NCBI GenBank assembly: GCA_965246965.1
Contig: CBDFGD010000002.1
Coordinates: 3,701,208-3,765,207 of the forward strand
DNA: 64,000 nt
Reading direction: 5' to 3'
From: Vicinamibacteria bacterium
GTDB taxonomy: Bacteria; Acidobacteriota; Vicinamibacteria; Fen-336; CBDFGD01
Numbering within the stretch: position 1 is the first letter of the stretch; the number at the start of each line of letters is the position of its first letter. The translations under genes and the position numbers were made by a program. A model generated the notes under the pieces. That model was not told the origin of the DNA and ran no database searches. It saw only the letters and a list, made by a program, of their open reading frames with translations. This document shows, piece by piece, positions 3,251 to 62,596 of the stretch.

Positions 3251-3311
3251 CAGACGGAATTTCCTAGTTTAAGGTCTCGACAAGTAGCCCTCCCCGTGCG
3301 AGGATCGTCTT

Positions 3312-6342: not shown

Positions 6343-6350
6343 CTTAACAA

Positions 6351-7604
6351 TCAAGACCGTAATCTAGGAAATTCCGTCATCAGATAGACCGTGCGCCACA
6401 ACCACCACGCCAGGAAGCCGGAGACCTGGAAGCCGAACACTTCGGCCACGGCGCTTCTGTGGCCGAGCGAGCCCATCTGACCGAGGCCCTTGAAGTCGTA
6501 GCGTTTCTTCGAGCCGCCGCGGACCGTGGCGACGACGTTGTGAGCGGCGATGGCCGCCTGGCGCGTCGCGTGCTGTGCGGTTGGGGGCGCGATACCGCCG
6601 CCTGGCGCCGGTACCCTCGCCGTGTCGCCGAGCGCCCAGACGCTGTGGCCGCTATCGACGTGCAGCTCTTGGTTGACGAGGAGCCTGCCGTTCTCGCTGC
6701 AGGGCAGCCCCAGCGCAGAGACCAGCGGATGAGGGAACGACGGCACCGTCGACACGAGCGTTCGCGTCGGGATGCGCTCCCCGCCCTCGAGGACTGCTTC
6801 GGTTCCGGTCGCGGCGTGGAGCCGCGTGAGCAGCCTCAGGTCGACACCGCGCTTCTTGAGCAGCCGTTGCGCGAACAGGGCCAGCTGCTCCGAGACCTCG
6901 GGAAGCACCCGGTCGCGCGAGTGCAGCAGGACGACGCGAAGCTCCGAAGCATCGATGCCGCGGTAGCTCTTGGCAACGCCGCGCACGAAGTCGTTCAGCT
7001 CGGCGACGACCTCGACGCCGGAGAAGCCGCCGCCCGCGACTACGAACGTCAGCAGCTGTCGACGCAGCTCCGGGTCCGACTCGATCGAGGCCTCCTCGAG
7101 GGCGTGGATGACGTGATTGCGGAGGGCGAGCGCGTCGCCCATGTTCTTGAACGGCATCGCGTGCTCGGGCAGGCCGCGCATGCCGCGAAAGTCCGTGACG
7201 GTGCCGAGGGCGACGACCAGGTGGTCGAAGGGGATCACGTGAGGCTGGGGCCGGAAACCCGGCGCCGTGATGATCTGCTTGTGCTAGACGTCGACGCGCT
7301 CGATCTCGCGCACGTGAATGTCGGTGCGCGGCAGCATGCGGCGCAGCGGGCTGACGATGTCCAGGATGCCGACGCCACCCGAGATCACCTCGGGCAGCAT
7401 CGGCTGGAAGACGAAGTAGTTCTCCTTGTTGACGAGGGCGATCTCGAAATCGTCCCCGCGTCCGAGCCGCTTCTCCAGCTCGAGGGCCGTGTAGACGCCG
7501 GCAAAGCCGCCGCCGAGGACCACGACTCGCGGCTTGCGTGGAGCCGTCAGTGGGCGACTCCGATCAACGGCGGCCACGGAGACACAGAGACGCAGAGAAC
7601 GCAC
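6351..7604 (-). pseudogene. ndh: Type II NADH dehydrogenase (NDH-2, ndh) with in-frame TAG and transposon-truncated C-terminus
   Basis: VVVLGGGFAGVYTA dinucleotide fold and second GGGFSGVE motif. In-frame TAG at 7284-7286 (VDV*HKQII) with the same frame continuing. Last 9 codons (MTEFPRLRS*) are encoded by the transposon IR-R. Confidence 0.7.
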
Positions 7605-10950: not shown

Positions 10951-11023
10951 CCTCCGGTCTCGGCGGCCGAAGCGGCGCGCGCGAGGAGTGCGGCGGGGAG
11001 GGTGATTGCCGCTACGGTCCTGC

Positions 11024-12529
11024 TCATGGTCCGACGGCCCAGCGAACCGGCGCGATCACGACGTCTTCGGCGGCGATCGTTGCGAGCTGGTACAGATCGA
11101 ACAGGGCGTCGGGGTAGATGCCCAGCACGACGCTCGCTCCCGCGGTCGCCGCGATCGGGAGCCAGAGTCGCTTATCCCGTGGCTCGAGGGGCTGGGTCGG
11201 CACGTACTCGTCGAAGAAGCCGGTCCGCACGATCGGGATGAGATAGGCCAGATTCAGCACGCCGCTCAGGACGAGCAGCGGGACGAACAGCGCCCGACCT
11301 GCTTCGACGGCGCCCAGGCCGAGGCTCCACTTACTGACGAAGCCGACAAAGAGCGGCACGCCGGCCAACCCCAGAGCAGCGACGCCGAAGGCCGCGAAGG
11401 TGATGGGCATGTGTCGCCCCAACCCCGCGAGGCCGCTGATGAAGCCGCGCCCCGATGTCCGCTGGATCGCCCCCGCGCAGAAGAACAGCGTGATCTTCAT
11501 GAAGGCGTGGGCGGCGATGTGGAAGAAGGCGCCGAGCAGCGCCAGAAACGAGCCCAGAGCAGCGCCGAGCAGGATGTACGAGAGCTGGCCGATGGTCGAG
11601 TAGGCGAGGCGTCGCTTGAGGTGGTCCTCGCCGAAGGCCCGCAGCGACGCCAACAGGATCGTCGTTCCGGCGAGCGCCGCCAGCGCCACGTCGAGACCCA
11701 ACCCACGCATCAGATCGACGCCGAATACGAAACCCACCACGCGCAGACAGCCGAACACGCCGGCCTTGACGACCGCCACCGCGTGCAGCAGCGCGCTCAC
11801 CGGCGTAGGCGCCACCATTGCGGCCGGCAGCCAGCCGTGGAGGGGCATCAGCGCTGCCTTGACCCCCAAGCCCCCGATGAAGAGCGCGAACAGCGCGACG
11901 CCAGTGAGGTCCGAAACGGCACCGTCGAGAAAGCCGCCTCCGCGAAAGCCCTCGCCGGGAAGGATCCAGGATGTCCAGACCACCGCCACCAGCAACAGCT
12001 GCCCGCCGGTCAACGTGTAGAGCAGATACTTTCTCCCGGCGGCCACCGCCTCCTCGGTCCGGTTGAAGACGACCAGCGGGTAGGTGGCGAGCGTCAACAG
12101 CTCGTAGAAGACGAAGAAAGTCGGCAGGTTCGCTGCGAACGCCACGCCGATCGTCGCGCCCAGGCAAAGAGCGAAGCTGGCGAAGTAGCGCGGCTTTCGC
12201 GCCTCGTCCTCGACCTGGATGTAGCCGAGCGAGTAGACGGAGGTCAAGAGCCAGAGCGTCGAGGCGACGAGGGCAAAGAGCAACCCGAGCGCGTCGACGC
12301 GCAGCTGCAGGTCGTGACCCGGAAAGAGCGGCCAGGCGGGAGACGCCACTGTCCCACCGGCCCGGACGACGGGGAGCAGCGAGACGACGACGCCCAGCTT
12401 GACCACGGCGGCGACCAGCGTCCACAGCATCGCGAGCCCCGCCAGGCGCCGCGTCGCGAGGATGAGCACGGCGGCGATCAGCGAAACGGTGACGGCGATC
12501 ACGGGTCGCCAGGAGACCAGCTCGATCAC
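11024..12529 (-). CDS. Mrp antiporter subunit D-like (NuoM/N family), second paralog
   Basis: WLPAAMVAPTPVSALLHAVAVVKAGVFG and HIAAHAFMKITLFFCAGAI motifs; 501 aa; overlaps neighbour by 4 bp. Confidence 0.8.
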   Translation of the reverse strand: MIELVSWRPVIAVTVSLIAAVLILATRRLAGLAMLWTLVAAVVKLGVVVSLLPVVRAGGTVASPAWPLFPGHDLQLRVDALGLLFALVASTLWLLTSVYSLGYIQVEDEARKPRYFASFALCLGATIGVAFAANLPTFFVFYELLTLATYPLVVFNRTEEAVAAGRKYLLYTLTGGQLLLVAVVWTSWILPGEGFRGGGFLDGAVSDLTGVALFALFIGGLGVKAALMPLHGWLPAAMVAPTPVSALLHAVAVVKAGVFGCLRVVGFVFGVDLMRGLGLDVALAALAGTTILLASLRAFGEDHLKRRLAYSTIGQLSYILLGAALGSFLALLGAFFHIAAHAFMKITLFFCAGAIQRTSGRGFISGLAGLGRHMPITFAAFGVAALGLAGVPLFVGFVSKWSLGLGAVEAGRALFVPLLVLSGVLNLAYLIPIVRTGFFDEYVPTQPLEPRDKRLWLPIAATAGASVVLGIYPDALFDLYQLATIAAEDVVIAPVRWAVGP

Positions 12530-13983
12530 TGCAGGCCCGCAGGCAGCGCCGCGCGGATCACGTGCGCCACGATCGGCTGATTGAACAGGCCGACGAGCGC
12601 GATGCCCGCGGCGAGCGTCGCGATCGGGGCGAGCATCGCGGCGGGCAGCTCCGCGGCGGACGCCCCCTCCGGCGCGGGACGCAGATAGACGCGCTCGAGC
12701 AGGCGGAAGCAGTAGCCTGCCGTGAGCAGCGAGCTCACCACGAGCGCGAAGACGGCGACGCCGTCACCCGCCTCGATCGCACCGATCAGGAGGTAGTACT
12801 TACTGAAGAAGCCCGCCGTCGGGGGCAGGCCGATCAGCGACAGCGTCGCGACGACGAAGGCCGCGCTGGTGGCGGGCATGCGACGGGACAGGCCGGAGAA
12901 ACGATCGAGTCGCACCTCGTGGCGCGAGCCGGCGACGCCGCCCGCGATCAGGAACAGACAGGATTTCATCAGCCCGTGGTGGAGGACGTGCAGCAGCGCG
13001 CCGGTCAGCCCGGCGGCGTTGCCGAGCGCCACGCCGAGCAGAATCGCGCCCATCTGCGCGACGCTCGAGTAGGCCAGCATGCGCCGCACCTCCCGTTGCG
13101 CGATCGCCAGGGCGGAACCCGCGAGGATGGCGACGCAGGCCGCCCAGCTCAGCAGAGGCAGCGCGTGGGCGGCGGGTCCGGCGGCGTCGAACACCCCGTA
13201 CAGGATGCGGATCAAGGCGAAGACGCTGACCTTGGCCATGACCCCCGACGTGAACGCCGCGACGGGCGTCGAGGCGTAGCTGTAGACGTCCGGCAGCCAG
13301 CCATGCAGCGGGAACAGCGCCGCCTTCACCGACAGGCCGACCGTGATGAGCCCCAGCGCCACGGCTAGCGCGGACGTCGCGCCGCTCGCGGGGAGGCGAG
13401 CGGCGACGTCGGCCATGTTCAGCGAGCCGGTCAGCGCGTACAGGTAGCCGACGCCGAGGAGATAGAGGCTGCCGGCCACGGTGCCGACGAGCAGGTAGCG
13501 GAAGCCGGCGACGGCGGCCCTGTCTCCGCCCGAAGCGGTGAGCGCGTACGCCGCCAGGCCGGAAATCTCGAGAAAGACGTAGAGGTTGAACAGGTCGCCG
13601 GTGAGGGTCATGCCGACGAGGCCGCCGACGAGCAGCAGGTAAAGCGAGGCGAACGCCCCTGCCGAGATCCCCGCTCGCGCCGCGTCGCGGCCGGAGTAGA
13701 TCCACACGAGCAGAGCGATCAGCTGTAAGAGCGCCGCGAGGGCGGCCGCCACCGGGCCGGCGATCAGCTCGATGCCCCAGGGCGGCGGCCAGCCTCCGAC
13801 GAAGTGGCGCACGCTGCCCAGCTTCAACGTCTCGCCCAGCAGGCCGCAGCACGTAACGAGGCCGGCGACCAGGCTCCAGAGCGTGACGAGACGTACCGCC
13901 CGCGCGGAGCGCAGTCCGACCAACGGAGCGGCGAGCGCGCCGATCAGCGGGACGACGATCGCGAGCGGGAGCGCGCTCGTCAA
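12526..13983 (-). CDS. Mrp antiporter subunit D-like (NuoM/N family), first paralog
   Basis: WLPDVYSYASTPVAAFTSGVMAKVSVF and HVLHHGLMKSCLFLIAGGV motifs; 485 aa. Confidence 0.8.
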   Translation of the reverse strand: MTSALPLAIVVPLIGALAAPLVGLRSARAVRLVTLWSLVAGLVTCCGLLGETLKLGSVRHFVGGWPPPWGIELIAGPVAAALAALLQLIALLVWIYSGRDAARAGISAGAFASLYLLLVGGLVGMTLTGDLFNLYVFLEISGLAAYALTASGGDRAAVAGFRYLLVGTVAGSLYLLGVGYLYALTGSLNMADVAARLPASGATSALAVALGLITVGLSVKAALFPLHGWLPDVYSYASTPVAAFTSGVMAKVSVFALIRILYGVFDAAGPAAHALPLLSWAACVAILAGSALAIAQREVRRMLAYSSVAQMGAILLGVALGNAAGLTGALLHVLHHGLMKSCLFLIAGGVAGSRHEVRLDRFSGLSRRMPATSAAFVVATLSLIGLPPTAGFFSKYYLLIGAIEAGDGVAVFALVVSSLLTAGYCFRLLERVYLRPAPEGASAAELPAAMLAPIATLAAGIALVGLFNQPIVAHVIRAALPAGLQ

Positions 13984-14345
13984 CGTTCGCGCATTCGTTG
14001 CAGAAGCTCGTGCTCATCGAGAGTGCCGTAGCGCCGCGAGATGCGGATCAGCAGTGCCAGAGCCACGCCCGTCGTGCTGACCGCGACGACGATCGCCGTC
14101 AGCATCAGCGTGTGAGGGAGCGGGTTCGCGTAGTCACTCGCGCGCAACAATGACTCGCCGTGCGCGGCCACGGGCGGCGCGGCCTGAGTTTTGTGGCCCA
14201 GGAGTATGAAGAAGACGATCACGCCGACCTGGAGGATGTTGAGCGCCATCAGCTTGCGGAGCAGGTTGGGCGTCTGCACCAACCCGAGCAGACCCAGCGC
14301 TACCAGCGTGACGGTAGCCAGGTAGGCGGCGTCCGAGGCGCTCAT
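13980..14345 (-). CDS. Mrp antiporter subunit C (NuoK-like)
   Basis: 121-aa 3-TM protein, LMALNILQVGVIVFFILLG pattern; operon position between B and D. Confidence 0.8.
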   Translation of the reverse strand: MSASDAAYLATVTLVALGLLGLVQTPNLLRKLMALNILQVGVIVFFILLGHKTQAAPPVAAHGESLLRASDYANPLPHTLMLTAIVVAVSTTGVALALLIRISRRYGTLDEHELLQRMRER

Positions 14346-15073
14346 GCGGCCGCGTCGTCGTCCGAAACGGGGGCGAGGCAGTAGAAGATCAGGGACAGCA
14401 CGCCGGTGACGGCAATGAACACGCTGGCCTCGATGACCAGGGTCGAGAGCGCTCGCTTGGCCGCTCCCGCGGCCGGCAGTGGCAACGCCGAGTAGTCGAG
14501 GTAGCTGCCGCCGAATGCGAGCGCGGCCGCGCCGATCCCGGCGTACAAGAGAGCGCCGCCGCAGGCGAGCGCGACGGCCGCCTCGGGCCTCAGTCCCCAG
14601 GCGACGTCCCGGCCGTGGACCAGACGGACGAGGATCAAGGCGCCAGCCAACACCGCGCCGCCCTGAAAGCCACCCCCGGGGCTGTCGTGTCCGTGGGCGA
14701 GGACGTAGGCGGCGAAGAGCATCAGAAACGGCGTGAGCAATCGCACGGCGGCGTCCAGCACCGGGCTGCCGAAGGCCGCCGGCGCCGGCCGTCGCTCCGC
14801 GGTCGCGTGGCCGCCGAGGAGCAGCAGCATGCAGGCGATTCCGGCGGCGAAGACGACGAGCGTCTCCCCGAGCGTGTCGAAGCCGCGATAGTCGGCGAGC
14901 ACGGCGGTCACCATGTTGTCGGCGCCGGTCTCCGCCCGAGCCCTCTCGATGTAGCGCGGGGAAACGTGGCGGGACGCGGGCGAGTCCGGATCACCGAGCG
15001 ACGGTAGGTCGCGGGCCGCCCAGAACAGCAGCGCCGCCGCCGGCAGCGCTGCCAGCCAGGCCGCCCGCCTCAC
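14342..15073 (-). CDS. Mrp antiporter subunit B (MnhB-like)
   Basis: Contains the MnhB signature ...ETGADNMVTAVLADYRGFDTLGE.... Candidate GTG start at 15073 overlaps the stop of the upstream DUF4040 ORF (GTGA). Confidence 0.65.
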   Translation of the reverse strand: MRRAAWLAALPAAALLFWAARDLPSLGDPDSPASRHVSPRYIERARAETGADNMVTAVLADYRGFDTLGETLVVFAAGIACMLLLLGGHATAERRPAPAAFGSPVLDAAVRLLTPFLMLFAAYVLAHGHDSPGGGFQGGAVLAGALILVRLVHGRDVAWGLRPEAAVALACGGALLYAGIGAAALAFGGSYLDYSALPLPAAGAAKRALSTLVIEASVFIAVTGVLSLIFYCLAPVSDDDAAA

Positions 15074-15333
15074 CGGCGAGCCCTCCGACCGGTGCGGTCG
15101 ATGGCGACGACGAAGAAGACCGTCGTGATGGCGCCACCGATGACGGCCTCCGTGAGGGCGACGTCTACGGCGCCGAGCACGGCAAAGAACAGCGCCGAGA
15201 AGAAGCTGAACGCGCTGAAGACGAGGACCGCCGCGAACAGGTCGCGGACGAGCAGCACGGCGACGGCGCATGCGAGCATGCACACGAGAAACAGCGCGGC
15301 GAGGGGCTCCGTCACTCGGGACTCCGACGCCAC
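15070..15333 (-). CDS. DUF4040-like small membrane protein (MnhB N-terminal / MbhD-like)
   Basis: 87-aa 3-TM ORF ...AVDVALTEAVIGGAITTVFF... typical of the MrpA-C-terminal/MrpB-N-terminal domain. May be fused to the downstream mrpB if a frameshift is present. Confidence 0.55.
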   Translation of the reverse strand: MASESRVTEPLAALFLVCMLACAVAVLLVRDLFAAVLVFSAFSFFSALFFAVLGAVDVALTEAVIGGAITTVFFVVAIDRTGRRARR

Positions 15334-15611
15334 GGCTTCAGGCCGGCTCGATACGCCGCGCGGCCCAGCGCGTGTGTCGCCGTGGGGTTGGCGAGCGCGA
15401 CGAAGAGCAGGATCAACAGGATCTTGCCGCTCTCGAGCACGAAGCCTTCGAGCGCGGCGATTCCGAGCGCGACGAGGGCCATGCCGAGGGTGTCGTTCTT
15501 GCCGAGCACGTGAAGGCGCGTGTAGAAATCGGGGAGGCGGATGACGCCGACGGCGCCCGTGAGGAGAATCAGGGTGCCGGCCGCCAGCAGCGGGAGGGCG
15601 ACCACGCTCAT
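15312..15611 (-). CDS. Mrp antiporter subunit G
   Basis: 99 aa, LLTGAVGVIRLPDFYTRLHVLGKNDTLG motif of MnhG. Confidence 0.75.
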   Translation of the reverse strand: MSVVALPLLAAGTLILLTGAVGVIRLPDFYTRLHVLGKNDTLGMALVALGIAALEGFVLESGKILLILLFVALANPTATHALGRAAYRAGLKPWRRSPE

Positions 15612-15877
15612 TCGGCCGCCTTGCGGATCTCGACGTAGCGCGCCAGCGCCAGCGTTCCGATGAAAGCGATCATCGCGTAGGCGAGCGCGATGTCGAGGTA
15701 GACGTCGAGGCGATCGCTCAACTCTCCGACCAGCAGCAGCAATACGATCGTCTTGGTGAGCATGACACCGAGGCCGCTGAGTCGATCCCAGATCGTTGGG
15801 CCACGCAGCACCCGGTACAGCGCCGCGAGCAGTCCGAGCAGGATCGCGCCGCCCGCGGCTTGAAGGGCGTACGTCAT
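15608..15877 (-). CDS. Mrp antiporter subunit F
   Basis: 89 aa, YRVLRGPTIWDRLSGLGVM pattern of MnhF. Confidence 0.75.
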   Translation of the reverse strand: MTYALQAAGGAILLGLLAALYRVLRGPTIWDRLSGLGVMLTKTIVLLLLVGELSDRLDVYLDIALAYAMIAFIGTLALARYVEIRKAAE

Positions 15878-16425
15878 TTCGTTTCGGGGGGCGCCTCGAA
15901 CAGCGCTGCGACTCTCGTGACCAGGGGGTCGGAGGCGTCGATCCGATCCCCTCGCGTCAGCGCGTGGACGACGTACTCGTCGCCCTCGACGTCGAGGGTC
16001 ACCGTGCCGGGAGTCAGCGTTATCGAGTTGGCCAGCGTGAGCCTGGCGAGATTGTGAGGCAGCGGGCGGGTGACGCGAACGACGTCAGGATCGATAGGCA
16101 GGGACGGGTGAATCACCACGTAAGCGACCTGCAGGCTCGCCTGGACGATGCGCACGATCAGCCACGGTATGTAGCCGAGCAGGCGCATCCAGGGGTGGCC
16201 CGCGAGCGGGTGCTCGCCGGGGTTTCCGATCGGGGGTGCGAGCAGCAGCAGCGGCTGCGTCGCCACCGCGATCCCGAGGGCGCTCAGGATGCCCAGGCCG
16301 AGATGGAATGGATCGGCCCGGCCCGAAAGGAGCAGCCAGAAGAAGAGCAGAACGCCCGCGAGCGGGAGTACGTGCCGACCGAAACGGCGTGGGATCCGGC
16401 TCGGGGCCGGCTGGCGCTGGCTCAC
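15874..16425 (-). CDS. Mrp antiporter subunit E
   Basis: 183 aa, two N-terminal TM helices and soluble C-domain resembling MnhE; first gene of the cluster. Confidence 0.65.
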   Translation of the reverse strand: MSQRQPAPSRIPRRFGRHVLPLAGVLLFFWLLLSGRADPFHLGLGILSALGIAVATQPLLLLAPPIGNPGEHPLAGHPWMRLLGYIPWLIVRIVQASLQVAYVVIHPSLPIDPDVVRVTRPLPHNLARLTLANSITLTPGTVTLDVEGDEYVVHALTRGDRIDASDPLVTRVAALFEAPPETK

Positions 16426-28924: not shown

Positions 28925-30200
28925 TCAGTTGGGTTCAGCTCGAGCTCCGTCGTCTCCGGGTTTGCCCGCGTAGCTCGCGTGACGCCGCCTCCAATGGGGC
29001 GCGGAAAGTGCGATACCCGCGATCAATCCGGTGAGGCACATGATGTTGACGTCGCCATAGGCGTGGTGGGAGACGGTGTACGAGATCGCATATCCAAACA
29101 GGCAGCCCGTGAGCCCGGCCTGGATACCCGCCGTCGGCGTGGTCGACGACTCTGGAAGCTGTCGAACCAGGCTTTGTGCCACGGCGAAGGCGAGCGCCAC
29201 CCCGGAAAGAAGGCCGACCACTCCGAGCTCGATCACGAGTCGTGACCATCCTCCCTCACCCCATCTGAGGCGCTCTCGATCGATGGGTGAGACCGTGTTC
29301 CTCTCGCGAATGTATCGCGTCCCCGTGGCGATCGCTCCGACCCCGTGGCCGACGACCCCTCCGGACGGAACGCTTCTGATCAGCTCATCCGCGATGGCGC
29401 CGAAGCGACCCGGCGCTTCGGCCGCGGAAGAGACAGCACGTTCATAGTAGCTGGCCTGCACCTGGATCATCCCGGCGGTCGTATAGAGGAGCACCCCCGC
29501 CAATCCCGAAGCGGCCACGAGGCCCACGGTGCGTCTTCCCATGTCGGCTCTTCTGGCCGCAACGATCTGCGTCCAGGCCCAGAGGATCGGCATTGCGATC
29601 ATCTTGCGGCGGCCTCCGAAGAGTAGACAGACTATCCCCAAAGCGGCGGCTGCCAGGGCGGGCACTCTTCCCCGACGCTTGGTCAAGACCAGCGTGAGAG
29701 CCAGCATGACCGTTGTCGCCGCGTGCCAACTCATGAGCTCCGGGCTGCGGAAGAAGCCAGCCGACATCCCAGCTGGCTCCGAGCGCGTCGACTCCCAAGG
29801 CGGCCCAGTGCGGAAACGCACCGGAAAAGTCCAGGACCGTGCCGATGAGGACGAGGCCCATGAAGCCGCAGTAGAGCGCCAGGAATTGATGGATGTCCCG
29901 CGACGTCCTCACATAGTAGAGACCAGCGAGGGCGGACAGCAGCGGGGCCACGTAGCTGAACAGGCCCAACAGCGCGACGCGCCAGTCACCCGCTTCGCTT
30001 CTGAAGGATACGAGCGTCGCGGGAATCAGGCTGATGCAAAAAAGGAGCGCGTACCGCCCGATCCGGGGATAGGCCTGCCATGCGCGCGCCAGCGCCGCGC
30101 GGTTCGCGATGAGGGCCGATGCGATAGACGCCGTCCAGATCGGCGCCGAGGCCACCGCAAACAGCGCCGGAGTGCCGGGCATGACCTTGCGGATGGGATC
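28925..30200 (-). CDS. O-antigen ligase/polymerase-like (Wzy_C-type) membrane protein; frameshift near 29700-29830; 5' end uncertain
   Basis: Two overlapping minus-strand frames give multi-TM segments. The called N-terminus (30341-30389) lies inside repeat-element copy A and is probably not coding. Confidence 0.45.
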
Positions 30201-30340
30201 CTGAATGACGCCTATGACGATGGCGCAGGCGATCCCGGCTCGCCATCGGATCAGGCCGATCAGGCTGCACGACAGGACCAGCGCGCCGAAGAGGCCCTGG
30301 AGGCTGAAGGGGTTGAGGAATCCGAAATCCAAAGACGCGC

Positions 30341-30383
30341 CTAGTGGCCCGTAACAGGGAGATCGGTGCCAGCGAGACCGCCA
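30341..30383. repeat. Partial copy (left arm only) of the CTAG-bounded hairpin element family
   Basis: CTAGTGGCCCGTAACAGGGAGATCGGTGCCAGCGAGACCGCC matches the left arm of copy C (62429-62470) with 2 mismatches, followed by a degenerate core start (gccgaggccctgg). Confidence 0.6.
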
Positions 30384-30544
30384 CCCCAACGAGATCGGTC
30401 ACCGGCTCGCCGCCGAGGCCCTGGCTCCGATCGTCGAAGCGCTGCTCGAGTAGAGCCCGGCCGCTTCGAAGCGCCAACCGGTCACCTCGCGCACCCAGCC
30501 ATGGTGGACCCCGGGCCGTCCGGGCACCGGGGGTCCGGGAATCC

Positions 30545-32048
30545 CTAGGAGTCTGCGCGGCAGTAGTTCAGCCCGGGTGTGTCATCGTGCCTTGTGACCC
30601 GAGAGATCATCTTGCCTGGGTTAAACGGCAGTAGTGGGCTCGCGGACGAGTGCTCGCGAGGGAGGACGGGCGGATCCAAGGCCGGGCGGTGGTCATACCC
30701 AGACCATCTTCTGATTGAGTCTCCTGAGGTTGAGCGCCAAGCAAACGAGATTCCACTCGGCGCTGGTTTTCTCAAGCCCTCGAAGGCTGAAGGATTGGAA
30801 ACCAAGCACAGCCTTGATCCATCCGAATGGCGGTTCGCCGAGTTTGCGCCGCTTGTACCACTTGCGACCACGTTTTCATGCGGAGCGTCGCTTCGAGCTT
30901 CGAATTCGACGTTGGTGGAGAGTCTTTCTTTTCTCTCCCCAGAGCCACGAAACCGTCGATTCCGGTACGTTCCAAGTGCAGTAGGTTCTTTTCGGAACGG
31001 TAGCCGGCATCGGCCAGGGCACGCTTGGGCTTCTCACCGGTGTTGGCTTGAGCCGTTTTCAGCATCGGCTCGAGCTGACCGACATCCGCAGCGTTGTTGA
31101 TCAACCCGGTCGCAACGATCAGCTGCGATTTCTCGTCGACGGCGGCTTGGGCATTGAAGCACTGCTGGTAGCCACTCGAATCCTTCATGATGCGGCTTTC
31201 GGGATCGGTGAAGTTGTCCTGCTTCTTGTCCGGAGGTACGCCAAATCTCCTTTTGAACTTTGACCCTCGCTTCGATTCCTTGTCATCCCCTGGCCGACGT
31301 CCGGCCTGCTGATCTTCTTCCTTCTGACGGGCCTCCAGACGTGCCTTCGCTGCTTGGATTTTCTTGAGCCGTGAATCTCGGCGCGCCAGCTCTTCTGGCA
31401 GTTCGTCGCCACGAAAATCAGGACCAAACTCGACGTCTTCCGCAGCATCTTCTTGTTTCGCAAGAGCGGTGATAGCCCGAATCTCTCGACGGAGCTGTTT
31501 CTCCGTTTTCTTCATACGCTCGTAGCTCATCGCCTTGTGCTTGCTGGCATTCGCCTTGACCTTCGTTCCATCCAGAATCAACGTCCCAAGCTTGACCAAA
31601 CCCACTTCTTGAGCCAGACGCACGACTTGGACGAATACAGATCGAAACTGGGACAAATGGTCACAACGGAAATCACTGATCGTCCGGTGTGCCGGGAAAT
31701 TGCCTCCGCTCAAATAACGGTATGCGACATCCTCTTCCAGCTTCTTCGCGATCCCACGAGACGAAAACGTCCCTGTCGCATAGCCGTAGATCAGAACCTT
31801 CAGCATCATTCGAGGATCGAATCGTCGGTTCCGACGTCCATCGCCCTCGTAGCGCTCGTAGAAAGCACGCACATCCATCGCCTCCACCGTATCCGAGATG
31901 AAAAACGAAAGATGACCCTCCGGAAGCCAGTCTCGTGGATTCGACGGAAACAAACTCGATCGGTCAGGACTGTACGGACGGAAACTCGTTCCCATAACTT
32001 CAAAAACGCTCATTCACCCGATTTCGTTCCTGCCGCGCAGACTCCTAG
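30545..32048 (-). mobile_element. IS1182-family insertion sequence, 1504 bp, 19-bp perfect terminal inverted repeats beginning with CTAG
   Basis: CTAGGAGTCTGCGCGGCAG at 30545-30563 and its exact reverse complement at 32030-32048. Lower GC than the flanks; contains a single transposase gene. Confidence 0.8.
30772..32013 (-). CDS. IS1182-family transposase
   Basis: 413 aa; [34 protein letters not shown]...[12 protein letters not shown]... and [13 protein letters not shown] motifs typical of IS1182/ISH3-like transposases. C-terminus may be truncated. Confidence 0.75.
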
Positions 32049-32085
32049 CCGGCCCTTCGCCCCCCTTCCGAGGGCGTCTGGGGGG

Positions 32086-32829
32086 ATGCGGTATGATCGC
32101 GATTCCGGCCTCCTCAAGCGGAAGCCATCATCGCGAGCGTACCTCTTGGGCCTTCTCGACATCTTCCGGGGCAAACTCACAGACCCCACCTCCTTTTCGG
32201 GCGTCCAGGGCGGCGGAGACGTCATCACCACCCGCGTCGACGCTCTCGTCAAGTGGGGACGCAAGTCCTCAATCTGGCCGATGCCTTTCGGCACCGCTTG
32301 CTGTGCGATCGAGTTCATGGCGCTTTCCGCCTCGCACTACGATCTGGCCCGGTTCGGCGCCGAGGTGTTGCGTTTTTCGCCCCGGCAGGCCGACCTGATG
32401 TTCGTGGCGGGCACCATCGTCGATAAGGAAGCCCCGATCCTCAAGCGCATCTACGATCAGATGCCCGACCCGAAATGGGTCATCTCGATGGGCGTCTGCG
32501 CCTCCTCAGGAGGGTTCTACCGTTCGTATCACACCATGCAGGGCATCGACGAGATCATTCCGGTCGACGTGTACGTGCCCGGCTGCCCCCCCTCGCCCGA
32601 GGCGCTGATCGCCGCGGTGATGAAGGTGCAGGAGAGAATCCAGCTGGGCGAGCAGCAGAAGACGCCGCAGGGCGCCGCTCGACTCGGTGCCTCCGGCGAG
32701 GCCGCCAAAGACCGTCGCGAGCGCCGCGCCGCCTGGGCCAGGGATGATGCGCAGCGGCGCGAGCAGGATCTCGAGCCGCGCGGGGAGATCGCCTTTGGTG
32801 AATCTCCGGGCGGCGCCGCCCGCGAATGA
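32086..32829 (+). CDS. nuoB: NADH-quinone oxidoreductase subunit B (NuoB, 4Fe-4S N2)
   Basis: ...[24 protein letters not shown]...DVYVPGCPP; stop overlaps nuoCD start (ATGA). Confidence 0.85.
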
Positions 32830-34526
32830 GTAGCCCGAGCGCGGTGGTCGCGAGCGCTTCGCCGCCCGCCGCCCGCGCGCTCGGCCAGCGCCTCGGAGCC
32901 GCCGTCGAGGAGTCTTCTGAATTCCGCGGCGAGCAGTCCCTCACGGTGAATCGGCGGGCCTGGGTCGAGGCCGCGACGCTGCTTCGGGACGATCCCGACC
33001 TCGACTTCAAGCTGTTCCTCGATCTGTGCGGGGTCGACTACCTCGACGAGGACAGCCGCGACCGCTACGAGGTCGTCCTGCACCTCTACTCGCTGTCGAG
33101 TGGAGATCGGGTCCGGTTGAAGACGCGGTTGCCCGAGGAAGACCCCGCCCTCGACACGCTGTGCGGCGTCTTCAAAGGCGCGAACTGGTTCGAGCGCGAG
33201 GCGTGGGACCTCTACGGCATCGTTTTCGAAGGCCACCCGAAGCTGACGCGTATCCTCACCCACGACTCCTTCGTCGGGCACCCGATGCGGAAGGACTACC
33301 CGACCGGGCACCGCCACGTTCTGAAGGAGGCCAAGTCCCACCTGCTCGAAGTGCCCGAGAACACGGAGCACATGCTCGTCAACATCGGTCCCTCCCATCC
33401 CGCGATGCACGGCACCTTCCGGGTCCAGGCGTTACTCGATGGGGAGACGATAGAGGACTGCGAAGCCGAGATCGGCTACATGCACCGCAACTTCGAGAAG
33501 ATGGCCGAAGAGCGGACCTACTGGCAGATCATCCCGTACACGGATCGGCTGAACTACTGCTCCTCGTTCATGAACGGCCACGGCTGGGCCCTCGCCACGG
33601 AGAAGTTGCTCGGCATCGAGGCGCCCCCGCGAGCCGAGGCGGTGCGCGTGATCCTCTCCGAGCTGTCCCGCATCATGGACCACTTCATCTGCGTCGGCAC
33701 GAACGTCGTCGACCTCGGGGGCATGACGCCGTTCTTCATCCTGTTCCGTGCCCGCGAGGCGATCTACGACGTCCTCGATGCCGTCTGCGGGGCGCGGCTC
33801 ACGGTCTCCTACGTGCGGATCGGAGGCCTCGCCCAGGACGTGCCCGACGATTTCGACGCGCGCTGCCGGGCCGCGATGGCCAGTGTGCTTGAGGTGACCG
33901 AGCAGGCCAAAAAATTGCTGACGCGGAACATCATCTTCACGAAACGCTTCAAGGATGTCGGCGTGATGTCCAGGGAAGACGCCCTGTCCTACGGCTGGGT
34001 GGGTCCGTGCCTGCGCGGCTCCGGTGTCGACTTCGATCTGCGCAAGGACCAGCCGTACTCCGGTTACGAGCAGTACGACTTCGACGTGCCCGTCGGCAGC
34101 GTGGGCGATTGCTACGACCGCTACCTCGTCCGGATGGAGGAGATCCGTCAGAGCGTGCGGATCGTCGATCAGGCGCTGAAGACGCTGCCCGAGGGGCCCG
34201 TGATCGTCGATGACAAGGCGGTCGCGCTACCGCCCAAGTCCGAGGTCTACTCGAACATCGAAGCGCTGATGAATCATTTCAAGCTCGTCTACGACGGCAT
34301 CCTGCCGCCCCCGGGCGAGGTGTACGGCGCGACCGAAGCTGCGAACGGAGAACTCGGCTACTACATCGTGTCCGACGGCCGCAAGCACCCGCGGCGCGTG
34401 AAGGTGCGGCCGCCCTGCTACAACATCTACCAGGCCTTCCCCGAAATGATCCGCGGTTGCACGATCGCCGACGCGGTCGCCATCATCGGAGGTCTCAACG
34501 TGATCGCGGGAGAGCTCGACAGGTAA
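32826..34526 (+). CDS. nuoCD: NADH-quinone oxidoreductase fused subunits C/D (NuoCD)
   Basis: 566 aa; NuoC 30-kDa region followed by NuoD 49-kDa region (...[14 protein letters not shown]..., C-terminal ...[14 protein letters not shown]...). Confidence 0.9.
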
Positions 34527-34528
34527 CC

Positions 34529-36119
34529 ATGCCGAAATGCACCATCGACGGGCGCGAGATCGAGGTCGAGCCCGGCACGACCGTGATCCGCGCCGCTCTC
34601 GAGCTGGGGATAGAGATCCCGCATTTCTGCTGGCACCCCGACCTGCCCGTGGACGGCAACTGCCGCATGTGCCTCGTCGAAGTCGAGAAGATGCCAAAGC
34701 TCCAGATCGCGTGCAACAGCCAGGTCAACGACGGCATGGTGGTTCGCACGGACAGTGAAGCCGCGAAGCAGGCGCACCGCACGACCCTCGAGTTCCTGCT
34801 CGTCAACCACCCCATCGATTGCCCCGTGTGTGATCACGCCGGCGAGTGCTACCTGCAGGACCACTACATGGATCACGGTGGCCACGACTCCAAGATCGAG
34901 CTCGAAGAGAAGGTCCGGAAGCGCAAGGTCGTCGACCTCGGGCCGATCATGCTCGACGCCGAGCGCTGCGTGCTCTGCTCACGCTGCATCCGCTTCGAGA
35001 GCGAGGTTACCGGCACGAACAGCTTCGAGTTCGTGAACCGCGGCGACCAAACGCAGATCTCGACGTATCAGAATCGACCGATCACGCACGGCTACGCCGG
35101 CAACCTCGCCGACGTGTGCCCCGTCGGCGCACTGCTCTCCCACGACTTCCGCTTCCGGATGCGGGTGTGGTTTCTCGAGTCGACGGACTCGATCTGTCCC
35201 GGATGCTCGACGGGCTGCAACATCCATCTCGATCACCGCGACGGCGAAGCGCAGCGCTTCCGGCCGCGCCGCAACGTGCAGGTCAACAAGTCCTGGATGT
35301 GCGATGAGGGGCGGGCCCTCTACGCGGGGCTCGGTTCACCAGACCGCCTGAGCCAGGCGCGACTGAACGGAGCGGCCTCGAGCCTCGACGACGCGCTGGA
35401 CGCCGTGGCCGACGCCCTTCGCGACGCAGGATCGTGCGGCGATGCTGGCGAGCCCGCAGGCCAGCAACGAGGACCTTTTCGCACTGCGGCGGCTCGCGGA
35501 CGTGACCGGCGCGCGGCTCGACTTTCGCGTAGGCGATCCCCAGGACAAGCTGCAGGTCCGAGAGGACGAGATCCTGCTCCGCGCCGACCGCAATCCCAAC
35601 ACCAGGGGTTGCCTCGATCGGCAGATGGGGCGCAGCGGCGTGGCGCCGATCCTGGACGCGTGTCGAGCTGGCGAGGTCGAGCTGCTCTTCCTTCAGGATG
35701 CCGGCCTGCTCGACAACGAGCCGCTGGCCGCGGTCGCGAAAGCGGCAAAGAGAGTGGTCGTCATGGCGACCCATGAATCGGCTTCTGCGGACGCGCCGTT
35801 CGCCGTCCTTCCGGCGGCGACCTGGGCGGAGAGCGACGGTACCTTCACCAACTACGCGAGGCGCGTGCAGCGTTTCAAGCGCGCCTTCACCGCGCCCGGC
35901 GCCGCACGGCCCCGCTGGGAGCTGGCCGCCCTGTTGCTGCGACGCCTCGGCGAGCCATTCGAGGCTTCTTCGGCGCGCGACGTATTTCGGCTGCTGGCCC
36001 GGGAGGTCTCCATTTACGCGAGCCTGAGTCATCAGACGATCGGCACGGGAGGCCGCGCTGTCGGCGAGGAACCGGACGCCGCTGCGGCGGCCGAAAGCGG
36101 CGCCGAGGCGAGGGCGTAG
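34529..36119 (+). CDS. nuoG: NADH-quinone oxidoreductase subunit G (short NuoG); single-base frameshift near 35425-35445
   Basis: 2Fe-2S and 4Fe-4S cysteine motifs (CRMCLVEV, HPIDCPVCDHAGEC, CVLCSRCIRF). Frame 2 up to ...ALRDAG, then frame 0 ...AMLASPQASNEDLFALRRLADV... to the TAG at 36117. Confidence 0.8.
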
Positions 36120-36121
36120 CG

Positions 36122-36709
36122 GTGGCCGCCAAGACCGTCACCGTCAACCGGGACACGAGGCCTGGTGTCGTCCCGATTCTGTTCGGGATGTGGATCACGC
36201 TCCGGAACTTGATCCAGTCGTGGTTCATGGGAAAGGTGAGCACGATCCAGTTTCCTGAGCAGAAGCGCACGATCTCGAGTCGCTACCGGGGCATCCATCT
36301 GCTCACCGTGCGGGAGGACGAGTCTCCCAAGTGCGTCGCCTGCTACATGTGCGCGACGGTCTGCCCGGCGGAGTGCATCCACATCGAATCCGCCGAGCGT
36401 CCCGAGGAGACGATCGAGAAGTATCCGACGCGCTTCGAGATCGATCTGCTGCGGTGCGTGTACTGCGGCTTCTGCGTGGACGCCTGCCCGGAGGAGGCGA
36501 TCATGATGAGCCGCGAGAACGACCTCGTCGGCACTTCACGAAAGGAGCTGATCATCGACCGCGATCGGCTGATCGATCGCGGCAAGCTCGCCGAGGCCGG
36601 AGCGGGCTACCGGCCGTCCGACCACGATGTGCGTCGTCCCGTCCGCATCGCGGCGCTCGAGCGGCTCGAGAAGGAGCACGGGATCGTTCCGGGGATGCCG
36701 AAGCGGTAA
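36122..36709 (+). CDS. nuoI: NADH-quinone oxidoreductase subunit I (NuoI, 2x 4Fe-4S ferredoxin)
   Basis: GTG start; CVACYMCATVCP and CVYCGFCVDACP motifs. Confidence 0.85.
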   Translation: MAAKTVTVNRDTRPGVVPILFGMWITLRNLIQSWFMGKVSTIQFPEQKRTISSRYRGIHLLTVREDESPKCVACYMCATVCPAECIHIESAERPEETIEKYPTRFEIDLLRCVYCGFCVDACPEEAIMMSRENDLVGTSRKELIIDRDRLIDRGKLAEAGAGYRPSDHDVRRPVRIAALERLEKEHGIVPGMPKR

Positions 36710-41255: not shown

Positions 41256-42187
41256 ATGGGAACAGCCAAGGCCCTGACGCTCGCCTGCGTCGTCGCTTCC
41301 GCGGTCTCGCTGTCCGCGGCCCAGCAGCTTCCCGACATGGTCGTAGCGCCGGGGGCCAGCGCCCCCTCGGCAAGCGTCGGGGCGCCGTCGTGGCGATGGA
41401 CCCACGCACGGGGCGCGTGATCGCGATCGTCAAGCCTGTGTACGGACTGCTCCACGCCTATCAACCGTGCTCGGTATTCAAGATCGTCGTGGGCGTAGCG
41501 GGGCTCGCCGAAGGTGTGATTGCGCCGTCCTCCCGCTACCGTTGCCAGCGGGGTTGTTGGGCTTGGCCGGGCCACGATTCAATCGACCTGCGCCGTGCGC
41601 TCGCAGTGTCCTGCAATCCCTACTTCCAGTGGGTGGGCTCGCGCCTGGGGTGGCCCCGCATCCGCGAGTATGCGGATCGTTTCGGCCTGGGTCGGACGAC
41701 GGGCATCAATCTCACTGGCGAGATCAAGGGTCGGCTGCCCTGGTCCGTGACGAAGGCCCGGGTCGGCTACGTGTCGAGCCACGCCGCCGGAATCCGCACG
41801 ACGGCGCTCCAACTCGGTGTCCTGATCTCCGCCACCGTCAACGGCGGCCACGTCATGGAGCCGCGGTTGGCGCCCGAGTCGGGATTCGTCGCGAAGAAGG
41901 GTTGGCGCATCCCAGCCGGAGTGCCCCTCGACGTCCTGGCCGGTGGGTACTACTCGGCCGTCACCGAGGGGAGTGCATTCGGCGCCTTCGACGCGGGCTT
42001 CGTCGCGGGCGGCAAGACAGGCACCTGCTCCGGGGTGGGCTGGCTGGCCTCGTACGCTCCGGTCGACGACCCGGAGCTCGTGATCGTCGTCTTCATCCGA
42101 AACGGCAACGGTCGCGACGCTTCCGCCGTCGCCGGCGACATCTACCGGCGCATCTATGGAAGCGCGAGCCTCGCCGCCGCTCGCTAG
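41256..42187 (+). CDS. Secreted penicillin-binding-protein transpeptidase-domain-only protein (PBP2-like); single-G deletion-type frameshift in the GGGG run at 41379-41382
   Basis: Signal peptide MGTAKALTLACVVASAVSLSAA (frame 0); then frame 2 ...VVAMDPRTGRVIAIV...CSVFK (SxxK)...SCN (SxN)...GKTGT (KTG). Confidence 0.6.
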
Positions 42188-42347
42188 TACTCTGATTCGT
42201 AAATACGGTGTCGCACCGAGAACGCCGAGGCGCCCGGATGGCAAGGAGCCGAAGAGGGAAAATACCGGGAGTATTTGACCGATGAGCGACGCAGCCAGGC
42301 GGGATGCATCGGCGTTCGAATGCAACCGTAGTTGCGGATCCGAGTAC
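42181..42347. repeat. CTAG-bounded hairpin element, copy B (167 bp): 9-bp perfect terminal inverted repeat plus ~35-bp imperfect stem around an 89-bp conserved core
   Basis: CTAGTACTC...GAGTACTAG termini; arms pair (GATTCG/CGGATC, TACGGT/ACCGTA). Core 42225-42313 is identical to copy C except 1 nt. The PBP stop (TAG 42185-42187) and PEGA stop (CTA 42344-42346) lie in the element termini. Confidence 0.7.
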
Positions 42348-44023
42348 TAGTTGGGCCGCAGGTCGATGGCGAGCTCGCTCGTCTCGCCGCTCTTGACGTT
42401 TGCTGTCGCCTGGTAGGTCTTGTAGTCGGGCCGAACCACCTCGATCAGATGCGGGCCCGGCGGCAGCGGGAACGGCTCCCGTCGCAGAATCTGGCTCGTA
42501 CCGACGAAGTGCCCGTCGACGTAGACCGTCGCGTCCTCGGGCCTGACGTCGACCCGAAGACGTCCCGCGTCCGCGGGAAGCGTGGGGGCTCGGGCGTCCT
42601 CGGACCCGGCGCGAGGGGATTCGAGGCTTTGCTGTGACGGCGCCTCGACCCGTCGCTCGCTCGTCTGGACCGGCTCCGCATACGTCTCGCCGCCGGTCAG
42701 ATCCTCGACCGTGGGGGAGCCTTCGCCACGCTCGAGGTCAGCGCGGTACTTCAGCGTCTGTCCTTCCGAGATGAAGACGGCGACCTGGTGGGTCCGGTGG
42801 CCCTCGATCTCGATCGAAATCTCGTGGCGTCCTGTCGTGAGCACCAGCTTCTGGAACGCGCCGTCGAAGTCGTCGACGAGGCCGACGTAGCTCCCGTCCA
42901 AATAGACGAGGGCCTTGTTTGGTTTGACCTGGAGACGGATGGCTCCGGTCGGCTCGTAGTCAACGTGCTCCACCCGGTGTGTCACGGTGCCGCCGTAGTA
43001 GGGGTAGCTGGAGCCATAGCCGTAGTAGGGATAGCCGTACCCGGAGCCGAACGAGAGCCAGGGCCAGCCAAAACCGACATTGAAACCACCGCCCCAGAAT
43101 CCGCCGTAGCGGTAGTACGGCCGGTAGCGGTAGTAGGGGTACCGGTAGCCGTAGTAGCCGGGGCGATAGTAGCCGCCGTAGAGACCGTACGACGGCCCAC
43201 GACGGAAGCGGCCGCGCCCGCCGTAGCCGGTTCCCGTCCCGGGGCGTGGATGACGCGACTGCGCGCCCGTTCGCGGCTGCGCCGATCTGCCACTCGATCG
43301 CCCCTGGGTGACGATGGAGCTGCCGGTGTTCGAGCCGGACGAGCGGCTGGGACCGACGCCTACCTGAGTGTTCGACCCCCGCGGCCGAGCGTGGCGAGAT
43401 CCGGACCGGTCGCTCTCCTGACGAGCCTGGCCGGACGAATTGCGGCTGGCGTTACGACCCGCGGCGGCGCGCAGCGCGTCGACGGAGCTTCGCGAATTCG
43501 CCGCGCGGGAGCGCGTCGGCGACTGCTGCGAATCTCGCGACGACGATCTCGAGGGAGTCGAGCGTTGCGAGATCGACCCCGAGCGGTCCGACTGGCGCTG
43601 CTGCGAATCTCGCGACGACGATTTCGAGGCAGGCGAACGTTGCGACACCGACCTCGAGCGGTTCGCCTGGCGCTGCGAATCTCGGGACGACGACCTCGAG
43701 GCAGTCGAGCGCTGCGAGATCGACCCCGAGCGGTCCGACTGGCGCTGCTGCGAATCTCGGGACGACGACCTCGAGGCAGTCGAGTGTTGCGAGATCGACC
43801 TCGAGCGATCCGCCTGGCGCTGCGACGACCGGGAAGCAGCAGGCCTCGAAGAACGTGAAGAAGATGGTCGGGCCGAGGAGCGGGCCTGGCCTCCCCGGCT
43901 GGACGGCCGGCGAGACGCGGCGCGCGGTTTCTCGTCTTGCCCAAAGGCGGCTCCTGCCGTGAACCCCCCGGGCAGCAGTAGTGCGATTGCTGCTGTCAGG
44001 GTGGCAGCTCGCTTTGCTTGCAT
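42347..44023 (-). CDS. Secreted repeat protein: signal peptide, Ser/Arg-rich 27-aa tandem repeats, Gly/Tyr-rich low-complexity region, two C-terminal PEGA domains
   Basis: SD GAGGAGG 5 nt before the ATG (44023). MQAKRAATLTAAIALLLPGGFTAGAAFG signal. Repeats SRSISQxSTASRSSSRDSQQRQSDRSG x4. PEGA-like ...ALVYLDGSYVG... and ...ATVYVDGHFVG.... Confidence 0.7.
   Translation of the reverse strand: MQAKRAATLTAAIALLLPGGFTAGAAFGQDEKPRAASRRPSSRGGQARSSARPSSSRSSRPAASRSSQRQADRSRSISQHSTASRSSSRDSQQRQSDRSGSISQRSTASRSSSRDSQRQANRSRSVSQRSPASKSSSRDSQQRQSDRSGSISQRSTPSRSSSRDSQQSPTRSRAANSRSSVDALRAAAGRNASRNSSGQARQESDRSGSRHARPRGSNTQVGVGPSRSSGSNTGSSIVTQGRSSGRSAQPRTGAQSRHPRPGTGTGYGGRGRFRRGPSYGLYGGYYRPGYYGYRYPYYRYRPYYRYGGFWGGGFNVGFGWPWLSFGSGYGYPYYGYGSSYPYYGGTVTHRVEHVDYEPTGAIRLQVKPNKALVYLDGSYVGLVDDFDGAFQKLVLTTGRHEISIEIEGHRTHQVAVFISEGQTLKYRADLERGEGSPTVEDLTGGETYAEPVQTSERRVEAPSQQSLESPRAGSEDARAPTLPADAGRLRVDVRPEDATVYVDGHFVGTSQILRREPFPLPPGPHLIEVVRPDYKTYQATANVKSGETSELAIDLRPN
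43480..43830 (-). repeat. Coding tandem repeat, ~81-bp unit x ~4.3, within the PEGA protein gene
   Basis: Near-identical 81-bp units visible directly (e.g. CTGCGAATCTCG(C/G)GACGACGA(T/C)(C/T)TCGAGG...GAGATCGACC(C/T)CGAGCG(G/A)TCCG(A/C)CTGGCG). Confidence 0.8.
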
Positions 44024-52609: not shown

Positions 52610-52848
52610 TTCCGCCTCGAACGGGGTCTCCCCCAAGAAGAAAAAAGCCCTGGCCGATGCTGCGGCCCAGGGCTTCGATCCGTTCGGCTAGTTTCTAGTG
52701 CTCTAGCTCGAGGGCCTCCGTCCGCAGCGCGTTCCCAGGGGAACGTTCGGCGAGATGACGACGCCGGTGACGGAGGCTTTCATGTCTCTTCTTCGAGGCG
52801 CTGATCTTCGCAAAGCGCTCGCCGAAGGTCAATAGAAAAACGACCGGG

Positions 52849-62432: not shown

Positions 62433-62596
62433 TGGCCCGTAACAGGGAGATCGATGCCAGCGAGACTGCCGAGGCGCCCGGATGGCAAGGAGCCGAAGAG
62501 GGAGAATACCGGGAGTATTTGACCGATGAGCGACGCAGCCAGGCGGGATGCATCGGCGGTCGCAGCGGTATCGAATCCCCTGTTACAGGCCACTAG
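62429..62596. repeat. CTAG-bounded hairpin element, copy C (168 bp): ~38-bp imperfect inverted-repeat stem around the conserved 89-bp core
   Basis: CTAGTGGCCCGTAACAGGGAGATCGATGCC... pairs with ...GGTATCGAATCCCCTGTTACAGGCCACTAG. Core 62472-62560 is identical to copy B except 1 nt and contains a 15-codon mini-ORF with a GAGG SD. Confidence 0.7.

Follow-up and report, generated by a model that had tools for sequence, protein, structure and literature searches.

A defective ISKpn6-like insertion sequence at a CTAG site upstream of a nuoB-first gene cluster, beside the lone end of an IS630-type miniature transposon

The window, by which we mean the whole 64-kb stretch of DNA that was analysed, contains an insertion sequence lodged between two divergently oriented genes, a membrane-protein gene on one side and, on the other, nuoB, the first gene of a short cluster in which it is followed by a fused nuoC-nuoD, a short-form nuoG and nuoI. 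A 42-nt repeat, which belongs to a different kind of mobile element, lies 8 nt upstream of the TTG codon (30332) that homologues indicate as the start of the membrane-protein gene. The features of this region are the following.

30341-30382, plus strand: lone terminal inverted repeat of an IS630-type miniature transposon ("left arm only")
30383-30544, no strand: spacer between the lone repeat and the insertion sequence
30545-32048, minus strand: ISKpn6-like IS1182-family insertion sequence, 1504 bp with the CTAGs counted
30545-30548, no strand: left CTAG target copy
30549-32044: transposon proper, if CTAG is a 4-bp target duplication
30549-30563, plus strand: left terminal inverted repeat core
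30693-30875, minus strand: out-of-frame C-terminal 60 codons and stop of the transposase
30772-32013, minus strand: transposase reading frame, 413 aa
30872-30876, minus strand: junction of a 17-nt deletion
32030-32044, minus strand: right terminal inverted repeat core, at the transposase 5' end, facing nuoB
32045-32048, no strand: right CTAG target copy
32091-32097, plus strand: -10-like box GTATGAT
32146-32829, plus strand: nuoB
32826-34526, plus strand: fused nuoC-nuoD
34529-36119, plus strand: short-form nuoG, with a frameshift between 35377 and 35436
36122-36709, plus strand: nuoI

Counted with its terminal CTAGs, the element is delimited by inverted repeats CTAGGAGTCTGCGCGGCAG of 19 nt (30545-30563 and 32030-32048), which are 100% complementary and separated by 1466 nt. 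This 19-mer has no third site in the 64-kb window even when up to three mismatches are allowed, shuffled sequences yielding a mean of 0.05 matches. The GC content of the element is 55.7%, compared with 66.5% for the window and 66.1% for the 5 kb on each side. An earlier note on this DNA had described a 1504-bp element of low GC content with perfect inverted repeats, and its coordinates and counts were correct. It had also assigned the element to the IS1182 family, an identification borne out by the transposase frame, which carries the DUF772 and DDE_Tnp_1 domains and, broken though it is, scores 298.9 bits against the IS1182-family profile NF033551 of NCBIfam, for which the cut-off is 270; models of the IS5 family give only weak matches (40.7 against a cut-off of 140). 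The IS1182 family of ISfinder is characterised by terminal inverted repeats, a single transposase gene and a length of about 1.3-1.95 kb, and the element, with its 1504 bp, its repeats of 15 or 19 nt and its one transposase gene, conforms in each respect.

The length of the repeats is 15 nt without the CTAG tetranucleotides and 19 nt with them, and related insertions bear on which is to be preferred. Scanning one genome per species yielded 80 loci with transposases 58-63% identical, mostly from Terriglobia with a few from Gemmatimonadota, Hyphomicrobiales and Bradyrhizobium metagenome-assembled genomes, and 75 unique insertions were compared. Their ends are almost invariant, and the core GAGTCTGCGCGGCAG that closes the window element is conserved in elements whose transposases are only 54-63% identical. 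In 72 of the 75 insertions CTAG stands directly outside both ends and no other direct repeat is present, such that the arrangement (CTAG)GAGYCTGCGCGGCAG with CTAG on both flanks is common to the window, to ISKpn6 and to these 72. Of the three exceptions, one is flanked by CTAG at one end and by TTAG at the opposite end, and a second has a truncated end. In the third (L048) the same GAGTC...GACTC core lies between two direct copies of a 7-bp sequence, CTGTTAG, evidence only that target bases at the flanks were duplicated. Where related insertions abut hairpin repeats of the kind described below, the hairpin repeat extends undamaged to the CTAG at its own end and, taken together with the flanks of the related insertions, this indicates that CTAG is the duplicated target and not part of the transposon. 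The 15-nt repeats accordingly look like 19 nt because CTAG was duplicated at insertion. The duplication may comprise four base pairs (CTAG) or only two (TA, the terminal G and C then being the element's own), the junctions being the same either way. A wider palindrome around CTAG was considered as the true target and rejected, because the next base outward is complementary at 25 of 72 sites where 18 would be expected, too small an excess to support it. An allele without the element would read ...GGGAATCC-CTAG-CCGGCCC..., with one CTAG; the predicted empty site TCCGGGAATCCCTAGCCGGCCCTT found no match in metagenome contigs, and a search for near-identical DNA of the element in plasmids found none.

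The transposase is transcribed away from nuoB and its start, going by homology, is probably the ATG at 31995 (MGTSF...). The match of the frame to NF033551 covers profile positions 1-346 of 488 and ends there; likewise, residues 70-380 are identical to the homologue P0122 before the frame is lost. The missing C-terminus (...MVWV) is found in another frame at 30875-30696. The comparison with P0122 thus consists of a run of 311 identical amino acids, then the segment AKLKT, which is absent from the window, and then the last 60 amino acids (residues 317-376 of P0122), which are again identical. Where P0122 reads RMK-AKLKT-KRGRKW the window DNA reads ATGAAA-A-CGTGG and, since an intact gene must have 18 nt between ATGAAA and CGTGG, the window copy has lost 17 nt, a deletion that removes AKLKT and shifts the frame. 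When the deletion is restored, the protein has 439 aa and scores 357.6 bits against NF033551. The displaced segment contains the catalytic glutamate motif GEPPFGWIK, and the intact catalytic triad of an autonomous element is accordingly not found in frame; with the family profile matched above its cut-off, broken or repaired, the window copy is a defective member of the IS1182 family and not a non-member. In the protein search, P0122 was one of a cluster of 49 near-identical transposases, nearly all of them on one 5.1-Mb and one 628-kb contig, which are presumably the source genome. The window copy is a recent but dead derivative. Because its product has no catalytic glutamate, it would be mobile only if intact sister copies supplied transposase in trans.

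The genes to the right of the element are identified by matches to Oxidored_q6 and the NuoB family together with alignment to relatives (nuoB), by homologues 77-89% identical, one of them labelled Vicinamibacteria (nuoC-nuoD), by domain matches (nuoG) and by TIGR01971 at 123.2 bits, the cut-off being 113 (nuoI); within nuoG, tblastn with three related NuoG proteins passes from frame +2 to frame +3. According to the earlier note the insertion sits where nuoA is expected. That no nuoA precedes nuoB was confirmed: tblastn with NuoA of E. coli and Nqo7 of T. thermophilus as queries gave nothing convincing across the whole 64-kb window, a motif scan found none, and the antiporter-like genes at 9112-16425 form an Mrp cluster and not nuoLMN. 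The expectation itself, however, did not survive comparison with relatives lacking the insertion sequence, the kind of evidence that the note itself had said would count against it. We read the genomic context of six NuoCD relatives (NuoCD 77-80% identical), and in all six nuoB comes first, nuoCD second and nuoG (about 528 aa) third, two of the contigs ending inside nuoG; nuoI follows nuoG in the four contexts that are long enough, with one case unconfirmed where the gene after nuoG is cut by the contig end. Upstream of nuoB none of the six contigs has nuoA or an insertion sequence. The neighbours on that side differ (flavodoxin-like, DUF6285, alcohol dehydrogenase and sugar-nucleotide genes, a CBS protein, a PilZ/PAS protein) and the gaps measure about 40-230 bp, which leaves no room for nuoA. 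The cluster of the window consists of nuoB-nuoCD-nuoG-nuoI only and, like those of the six relatives, is not the canonical nuoA-N operon of 14 genes with nuoA first.

One could nevertheless suppose that the insertion, or a deletion caused by it, removed a nuoA formerly ahead of nuoB, given that the gene is found neither upstream of nuoB nor anywhere in the window and that transposition into another CTAG of the same molecule could, in principle, delete neighbouring DNA while the element kept a CTAG at either end. Such a loss is extremely unlikely in view of six relatives with nuoB in first place, dissimilar neighbours and short gaps free of nuoA and insertion sequences, and in view of the intergenic region of the window itself, which without the element measures about 310 bp and still has the conserved -10-like box of nuoB. 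Since related bacteria are nuoB-first without any insertion, the element did not replace nuoA; judged by these gene orders, nuoA would never have stood at this position and the nuoB-first cluster would be ancestral in the lineage.

A further question is how the insertion affects the expression of nuoB. The distance of 37 bp given by the earlier note between the element and nuoB is right for the first ATG of the frame, at 32086, but not for the start that homology supports. NuoB of the relatives starts MGLLD..., the matching codon in the window is TTG at 32146, and initiation at the ATG would add 20 residues found in no relative. The gene therefore probably starts at this TTG, 97 bp from the element, and not at the ATG. 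The -10-like box lies 43 bp downstream of the element in native DNA, and TATGAT, TATCAT or TATAAG is found upstream of nuoB in each of the five relatives with DNA for this region, one of which (L082) shares with the window the longer string GGGGGGATGCGnTATnAT. Since this conserved box lies downstream of the element, the native core promoter of nuoB has probably been kept, and a promoter from the element would not be needed.

Outward promoters are known for many insertion sequences, and the end that faces nuoB is the 5' end of the transposase gene, less than 100 bp from the nuoB start, such that the element might itself be thought to provide an outward or hybrid promoter. A simple sigma-70 scan of 30200-32300, however, detected no sigma-70-like promoter on either strand, neither at the end of the element facing nuoB nor in the region of the -10-like box. 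The transposase points away from nuoB and the box is conserved in relatives that do not have the element, and we regard a promoter of this origin as distinctly unlikely. A contrary effect could also be envisaged. The element stands between the nuoB core promoter and everything upstream, and it could have cut the gene off from upstream control, with the result that the cluster was silenced and began to decay, the frameshift in nuoG being a consequence. Yet NuoB, NuoCD and NuoI are intact, at 76-89% identity to their relatives, and the unrelated membrane-protein gene upstream is frameshifted too, so that assembly errors or general decay are a better explanation than an effect specific to the cluster. 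Silencing is thus an unlikely outcome. With the native core promoter retained, the insertion would probably be near-neutral.

The 42-nt repeat to the left of the insertion sequence is to be understood in the context of two complete hairpin elements elsewhere in the window.

42184-42350, no strand: hairpin element B, complete, 167 bp, between the stop codons of two convergent genes
62429-62596, no strand: hairpin element A, complete, 168 bp, CTAG-bounded, its left CTAG containing the TAG stop of the upstream gene

These copies have the same 91-nt core (99%) within different arms, fold as long hairpins (z = -6.6 for A and -4.7 for B) and are each placed exactly on TAG stop codons of the flanking genes. 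No known RNA family reaches its gathering threshold anywhere in the window; at a relaxed threshold hairpin A gives sub-threshold matches only, five to plant microRNA-precursor models and one to a frameshift element, which we read as generic long-hairpin hits. The window contains no tRNA genes as possible targets. The lone repeat is 95-97% identical to the left end of copy A, at 62429; in one alignment 30340-30382 matches 62428-62470 at 95%, and the likeness stops at 30382. Folding of the block 30341-30548 gives no hairpin (z = -1.2). What the earlier note took for a decayed hairpin copy with its right arm interrupted by the insertion is therefore real only in part. The left arm is present 162 bp to the left of the element, but no matching right arm occurs either before the element or past it, and the supposed right-arm remnant, GAATCCC, is a 7-nt coincidence. 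In related genomes ISKpn6-like elements insert beside intact hairpin ends and remove nothing. The spacer between the lone repeat and the element has no match elsewhere in the window or in 200 retrieved loci and is probably native intergenic DNA. A 64% DNA match to one locus (L108) had suggested a fragment of an IS110 gene, but protein-level similarity is absent in every frame and this candidate was discarded.

The hairpin ends, TA followed by GTGGCCYGTAACRG, match those of a full-length IS630-family element (L097:1033-2148), whose two ends, TA followed by GTGGCCTGTAACAG..., stand 1116 bp apart and enclose the gene for an IS630-family transposase (250.4 bits against NF033545, cut-off 100). The end motif TAGTGGCCYGTAACRG is present in at least 120 soil and sediment metagenome stretches, and 117 of 135 ends (87%) are preceded by C, giving CTAG, the rest by other bases. 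IS630 is cited as duplicating TA, preferably within 5'-CTAG-3' (Tenzen and Ohtsubo 1991, as cited in PMC2170065), and TA flanks with a strong preference for CTAG are common to IS630/Tc1-mariner elements and the hairpin elements. Unlike full IS630 elements, those of the window are only non-coding copies of 167-168 bp and the lone 42-nt end, and no remnants of an IS630 transposase were found in the window. The ends of the autonomous element are shared by copy A and the lone repeat, the arms of copy B being different. The elements also have the TA flanks, small size (copies of 167-275 bp), lack of a reading frame and high copy number of miniature transposons, and are accordingly IS630-family miniature transposons (MITEs).

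As the earlier note observed, CTAG stands at both ends of the insertion sequence and of hairpins A and B, from which the note proposed either a common target preference or a mobilisation relationship. The first proposal is supported, with CTAG on both flanks of 72 of the 75 related insertions and at 117 of the 135 hairpin-type ends; the second fails, as the hairpin ends match the IS630 element and not the ends GAGTCTGCGCGGCAG. One might still imagine that the hairpins are cut-down derivatives of the insertion sequence, moved by its transposase, both kinds being bounded by CTAG and the insertion sequence in related genomes often lying directly against hairpin ends. Past the CTAG, however, the ends are alike in nothing (GTGGCCYGTAAC against GAGTCTGCGCGG), and the 1116-bp element with hairpin-type ends encodes a transposase of the IS630 family, such that a derivation of this kind is scarcely conceivable. 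The shared CTAG instead reflects a convergent target preference of two families with no mobilisation link between them.

This convergence may in turn account for the proximity of the two kinds of element. CTAG is rare in the window, occurring 31 times where a second-order model predicts 89 and base composition 198, and 7 of these 31 sites are at the ends of the insertion sequence and the hairpin elements. When we tallied the flanks ourselves, about one third of the 75 related insertions proved to lie directly against the end of some other repeat bounded by CTAG. Since each insertion of either type makes two CTAGs of one and CTAG is scarce, closeness of the element and the miniature-transposon relic is to be expected and requires no functional link. 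More generally, these genomes retain few CTAG sites, and elements of two families specific for CTAG accumulate at them. We suggest, as a tentative extension that may well fall short, that two unrelated families, each turning one CTAG into two, seed targets for one another in CTAG-depleted Acidobacteriota genomes and so build nested clusters at gene ends, often on TAG stops.

The history of the locus would then be as follows. An ISKpn6-like IS1182 element inserted by ordinary DDE transposition into a CTAG tetranucleotide in the region of about 310 bp between the divergent membrane-protein gene and the nuoB-nuoCD-nuoG-nuoI cluster. Duplication of this CTAG left a copy on each side of the element, and 17 nt were later lost within the transposase gene. 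With the insertion point about 43 bp upstream of the nuoB -10-like box, the core promoter would have been spared. The 42-nt neighbour is the lone end of an unrelated miniature transposon of the IS630 family, which likewise prefers TA in CTAG, and both types, by regenerating CTAG at their ends in a CTAG-poor genome, would come to sit together. We consider this account as a whole, namely an ordinary ISKpn6-like insertion at CTAG that later became defective, displaced no nuoA and is unrelated to the hairpins, highly probable. Because nuoA was not displaced and the nuoB promoter has probably been kept, the insertion has little bearing on respiratory biology. For annotation, it implies that CTAG be treated as target and not as repeat, that the transposase be entered as a pseudogene and that nuoB most likely be started from TTG 32146.

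ISKpn6-like IS1182 elements are a well-known kind of insertion sequence, of which the window element is a new, defective member. Its closest named relative is ISKpn6 itself, which lies next to blaKPC in Tn4401 and whose transposase shows 53.7% amino acid identity over 98% of the length. Both have a single DDE transposase of about 440 aa and a similar size, about 1.54 kb for ISKpn6 (reportedly 1,540 bp) against 1.52 kb for the element with its deletion restored. In the sequence of a KPC plasmid the ends of ISKpn6 are CTAGGAGCCTGCGCGGCAG...CTGCCGCGCAGACTCCTAG; CTAG flanks each of them, and they are almost the same as those of the element, one repeat position differing (T in place of C). The two differ in their hosts, a GC-rich Vicinamibacteria-like bacterium and an enterobacterial plasmid, in the 46% divergence of their transposases and in the 17-nt deletion that has inactivated the window copy.

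Other IS1182 members are reported to target palindromic sequences (PMC5678879, where Siguier et al. are cited to this effect), for example the 4-bp palindrome GGCC in the case of ISPsy36 (PMC8027508), and in this respect the palindromic CTAG target of the element is similar. IS1272, by contrast, has been proposed to replace its target stem-loop and to leave no duplication (PMC5678879). The ISKpn6-like subgroup leaves adjacent hairpin ends intact with CTAG on both sides and, since the neighbouring hairpin ends are complete up to CTAG, stem-loop replacement in the manner of IS1272 can be ruled out here. MITEPsy1 is reported to duplicate 4 bp, either CTAG or YTAA (PMC3189936), and is similar to the element in this respect. 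The transposase of the element is matched weakly by models of the IS5 family, with scores far below their cut-offs. The ends of the ISKpn6 type are old and widespread. Known from carbapenem-resistance plasmids, they have been kept almost to the base among environmental Acidobacteriota, Gemmatimonadota and Alphaproteobacteria, although the transposases share no more than 54-63% identity.

Insertions of the ISKpn6-like type, to which the defective IS1182-family element lying between the membrane-protein gene and nuoB belongs (30545-32048), are not invariably flanked by a contiguous CTAG. In one locus fetched from another source the insertion (L048:4751-6301) is bounded instead by a 7-bp direct repeat, CTGTTAG, located inside an interrupted palindrome, GGGCT-GTT-AGCCC. 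This arrangement suggests that the ISKpn6-like transposase recognises the CT and AG half-sites and is able to accommodate a spacer between them. Furthermore, among the flanks of the related insertions (L003-L080), about a third adjoin the ends of other CTAG-bounded repeats, the recurrent sequences being AATGCGGG, ACAGGCTG, AATCCGGG and GGCCA, each running directly into CTAG. Judged from these flanks, nested or adjacent insertion looks like the rule at CTAG.

The CTAG-bounded hairpins of the window, which are IS630-type miniature transposons, agree in their core but not in their arms. Copies A (62429-62596) and B (42184-42350) have in common a 91-nt core of 99% identity (62467-62558 and 42223-42314, respectively), whereas their outer arms are unrelated between the copies and self-complementary within each. 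The common core could reflect recombination between two miniature-transposon families, or could itself be separately mobile. One metagenome contig carries a B-like hairpin as well (L122:896-1054, 74% identity), and another fetched locus contains a longer element:

L097:1033-2148, full-length IS630-family element of 1116 bp encoding a 355-aa transposase

The ends of this element are the same as those of hairpin A, and it is probably the autonomous partner of that miniature-transposon family.

Two further groupings of CTAG were observed. The intergenic stretch 52688-52706 holds three within 19 bp (CTAGTTTCTAGTGCTCTAG), the tetranucleotide being otherwise rare in the window; these may mark past excision events or be the remains of a small element. 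Likewise, 6 of the 31 CTAGs fall within 3264-6364, several in AT-rich surroundings, and this segment may be a lower-GC stretch or of foreign origin.

Upstream of the insertion sequence lies the following gene:

28925-30332, minus strand, membrane-protein gene with a break near 29740-29820

The gene probably starts at the TTG at 30332, just 8 nt away from the lone hairpin end (30341-30382). Homologues comprise 450-480 aa; of the first reading frame only residues ~30-207 align with them, and a second, overlapping frame runs on. By its reading frames this gene, like nuoG, looks frameshifted. Alignment of three related NuoG proteins follows frame +2 up to 35377 and frame +3 from 35436, placing between these positions a frameshift that splits nuoG; no obvious homopolymer is present at the site, so that nuoG may be a genuine pseudogene here, or the break an indel introduced during assembly.

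Upstream of nuoB, an 18-nt string (GGGGGGATGCGnTATnAT) is common to the window (32080-32097) and to a relative with a nuoB-first cluster (L082:6161-6178). The proteins of that relative are only ~77% identical to those of the window. The -10-like box (GTATGAT, 32091-32097) may thus be part of a longer regulatory or promoter element.

A further group of genes resembles components of the nuo system:

9112-16425, minus strand, Mrp/Mnh-type cation-proton antiporter cluster

It encodes three antiporter-like subunits together with an MnhB-like protein and a number of small subunits, and on a hasty reading could pass for nuoL, nuoM and nuoN.
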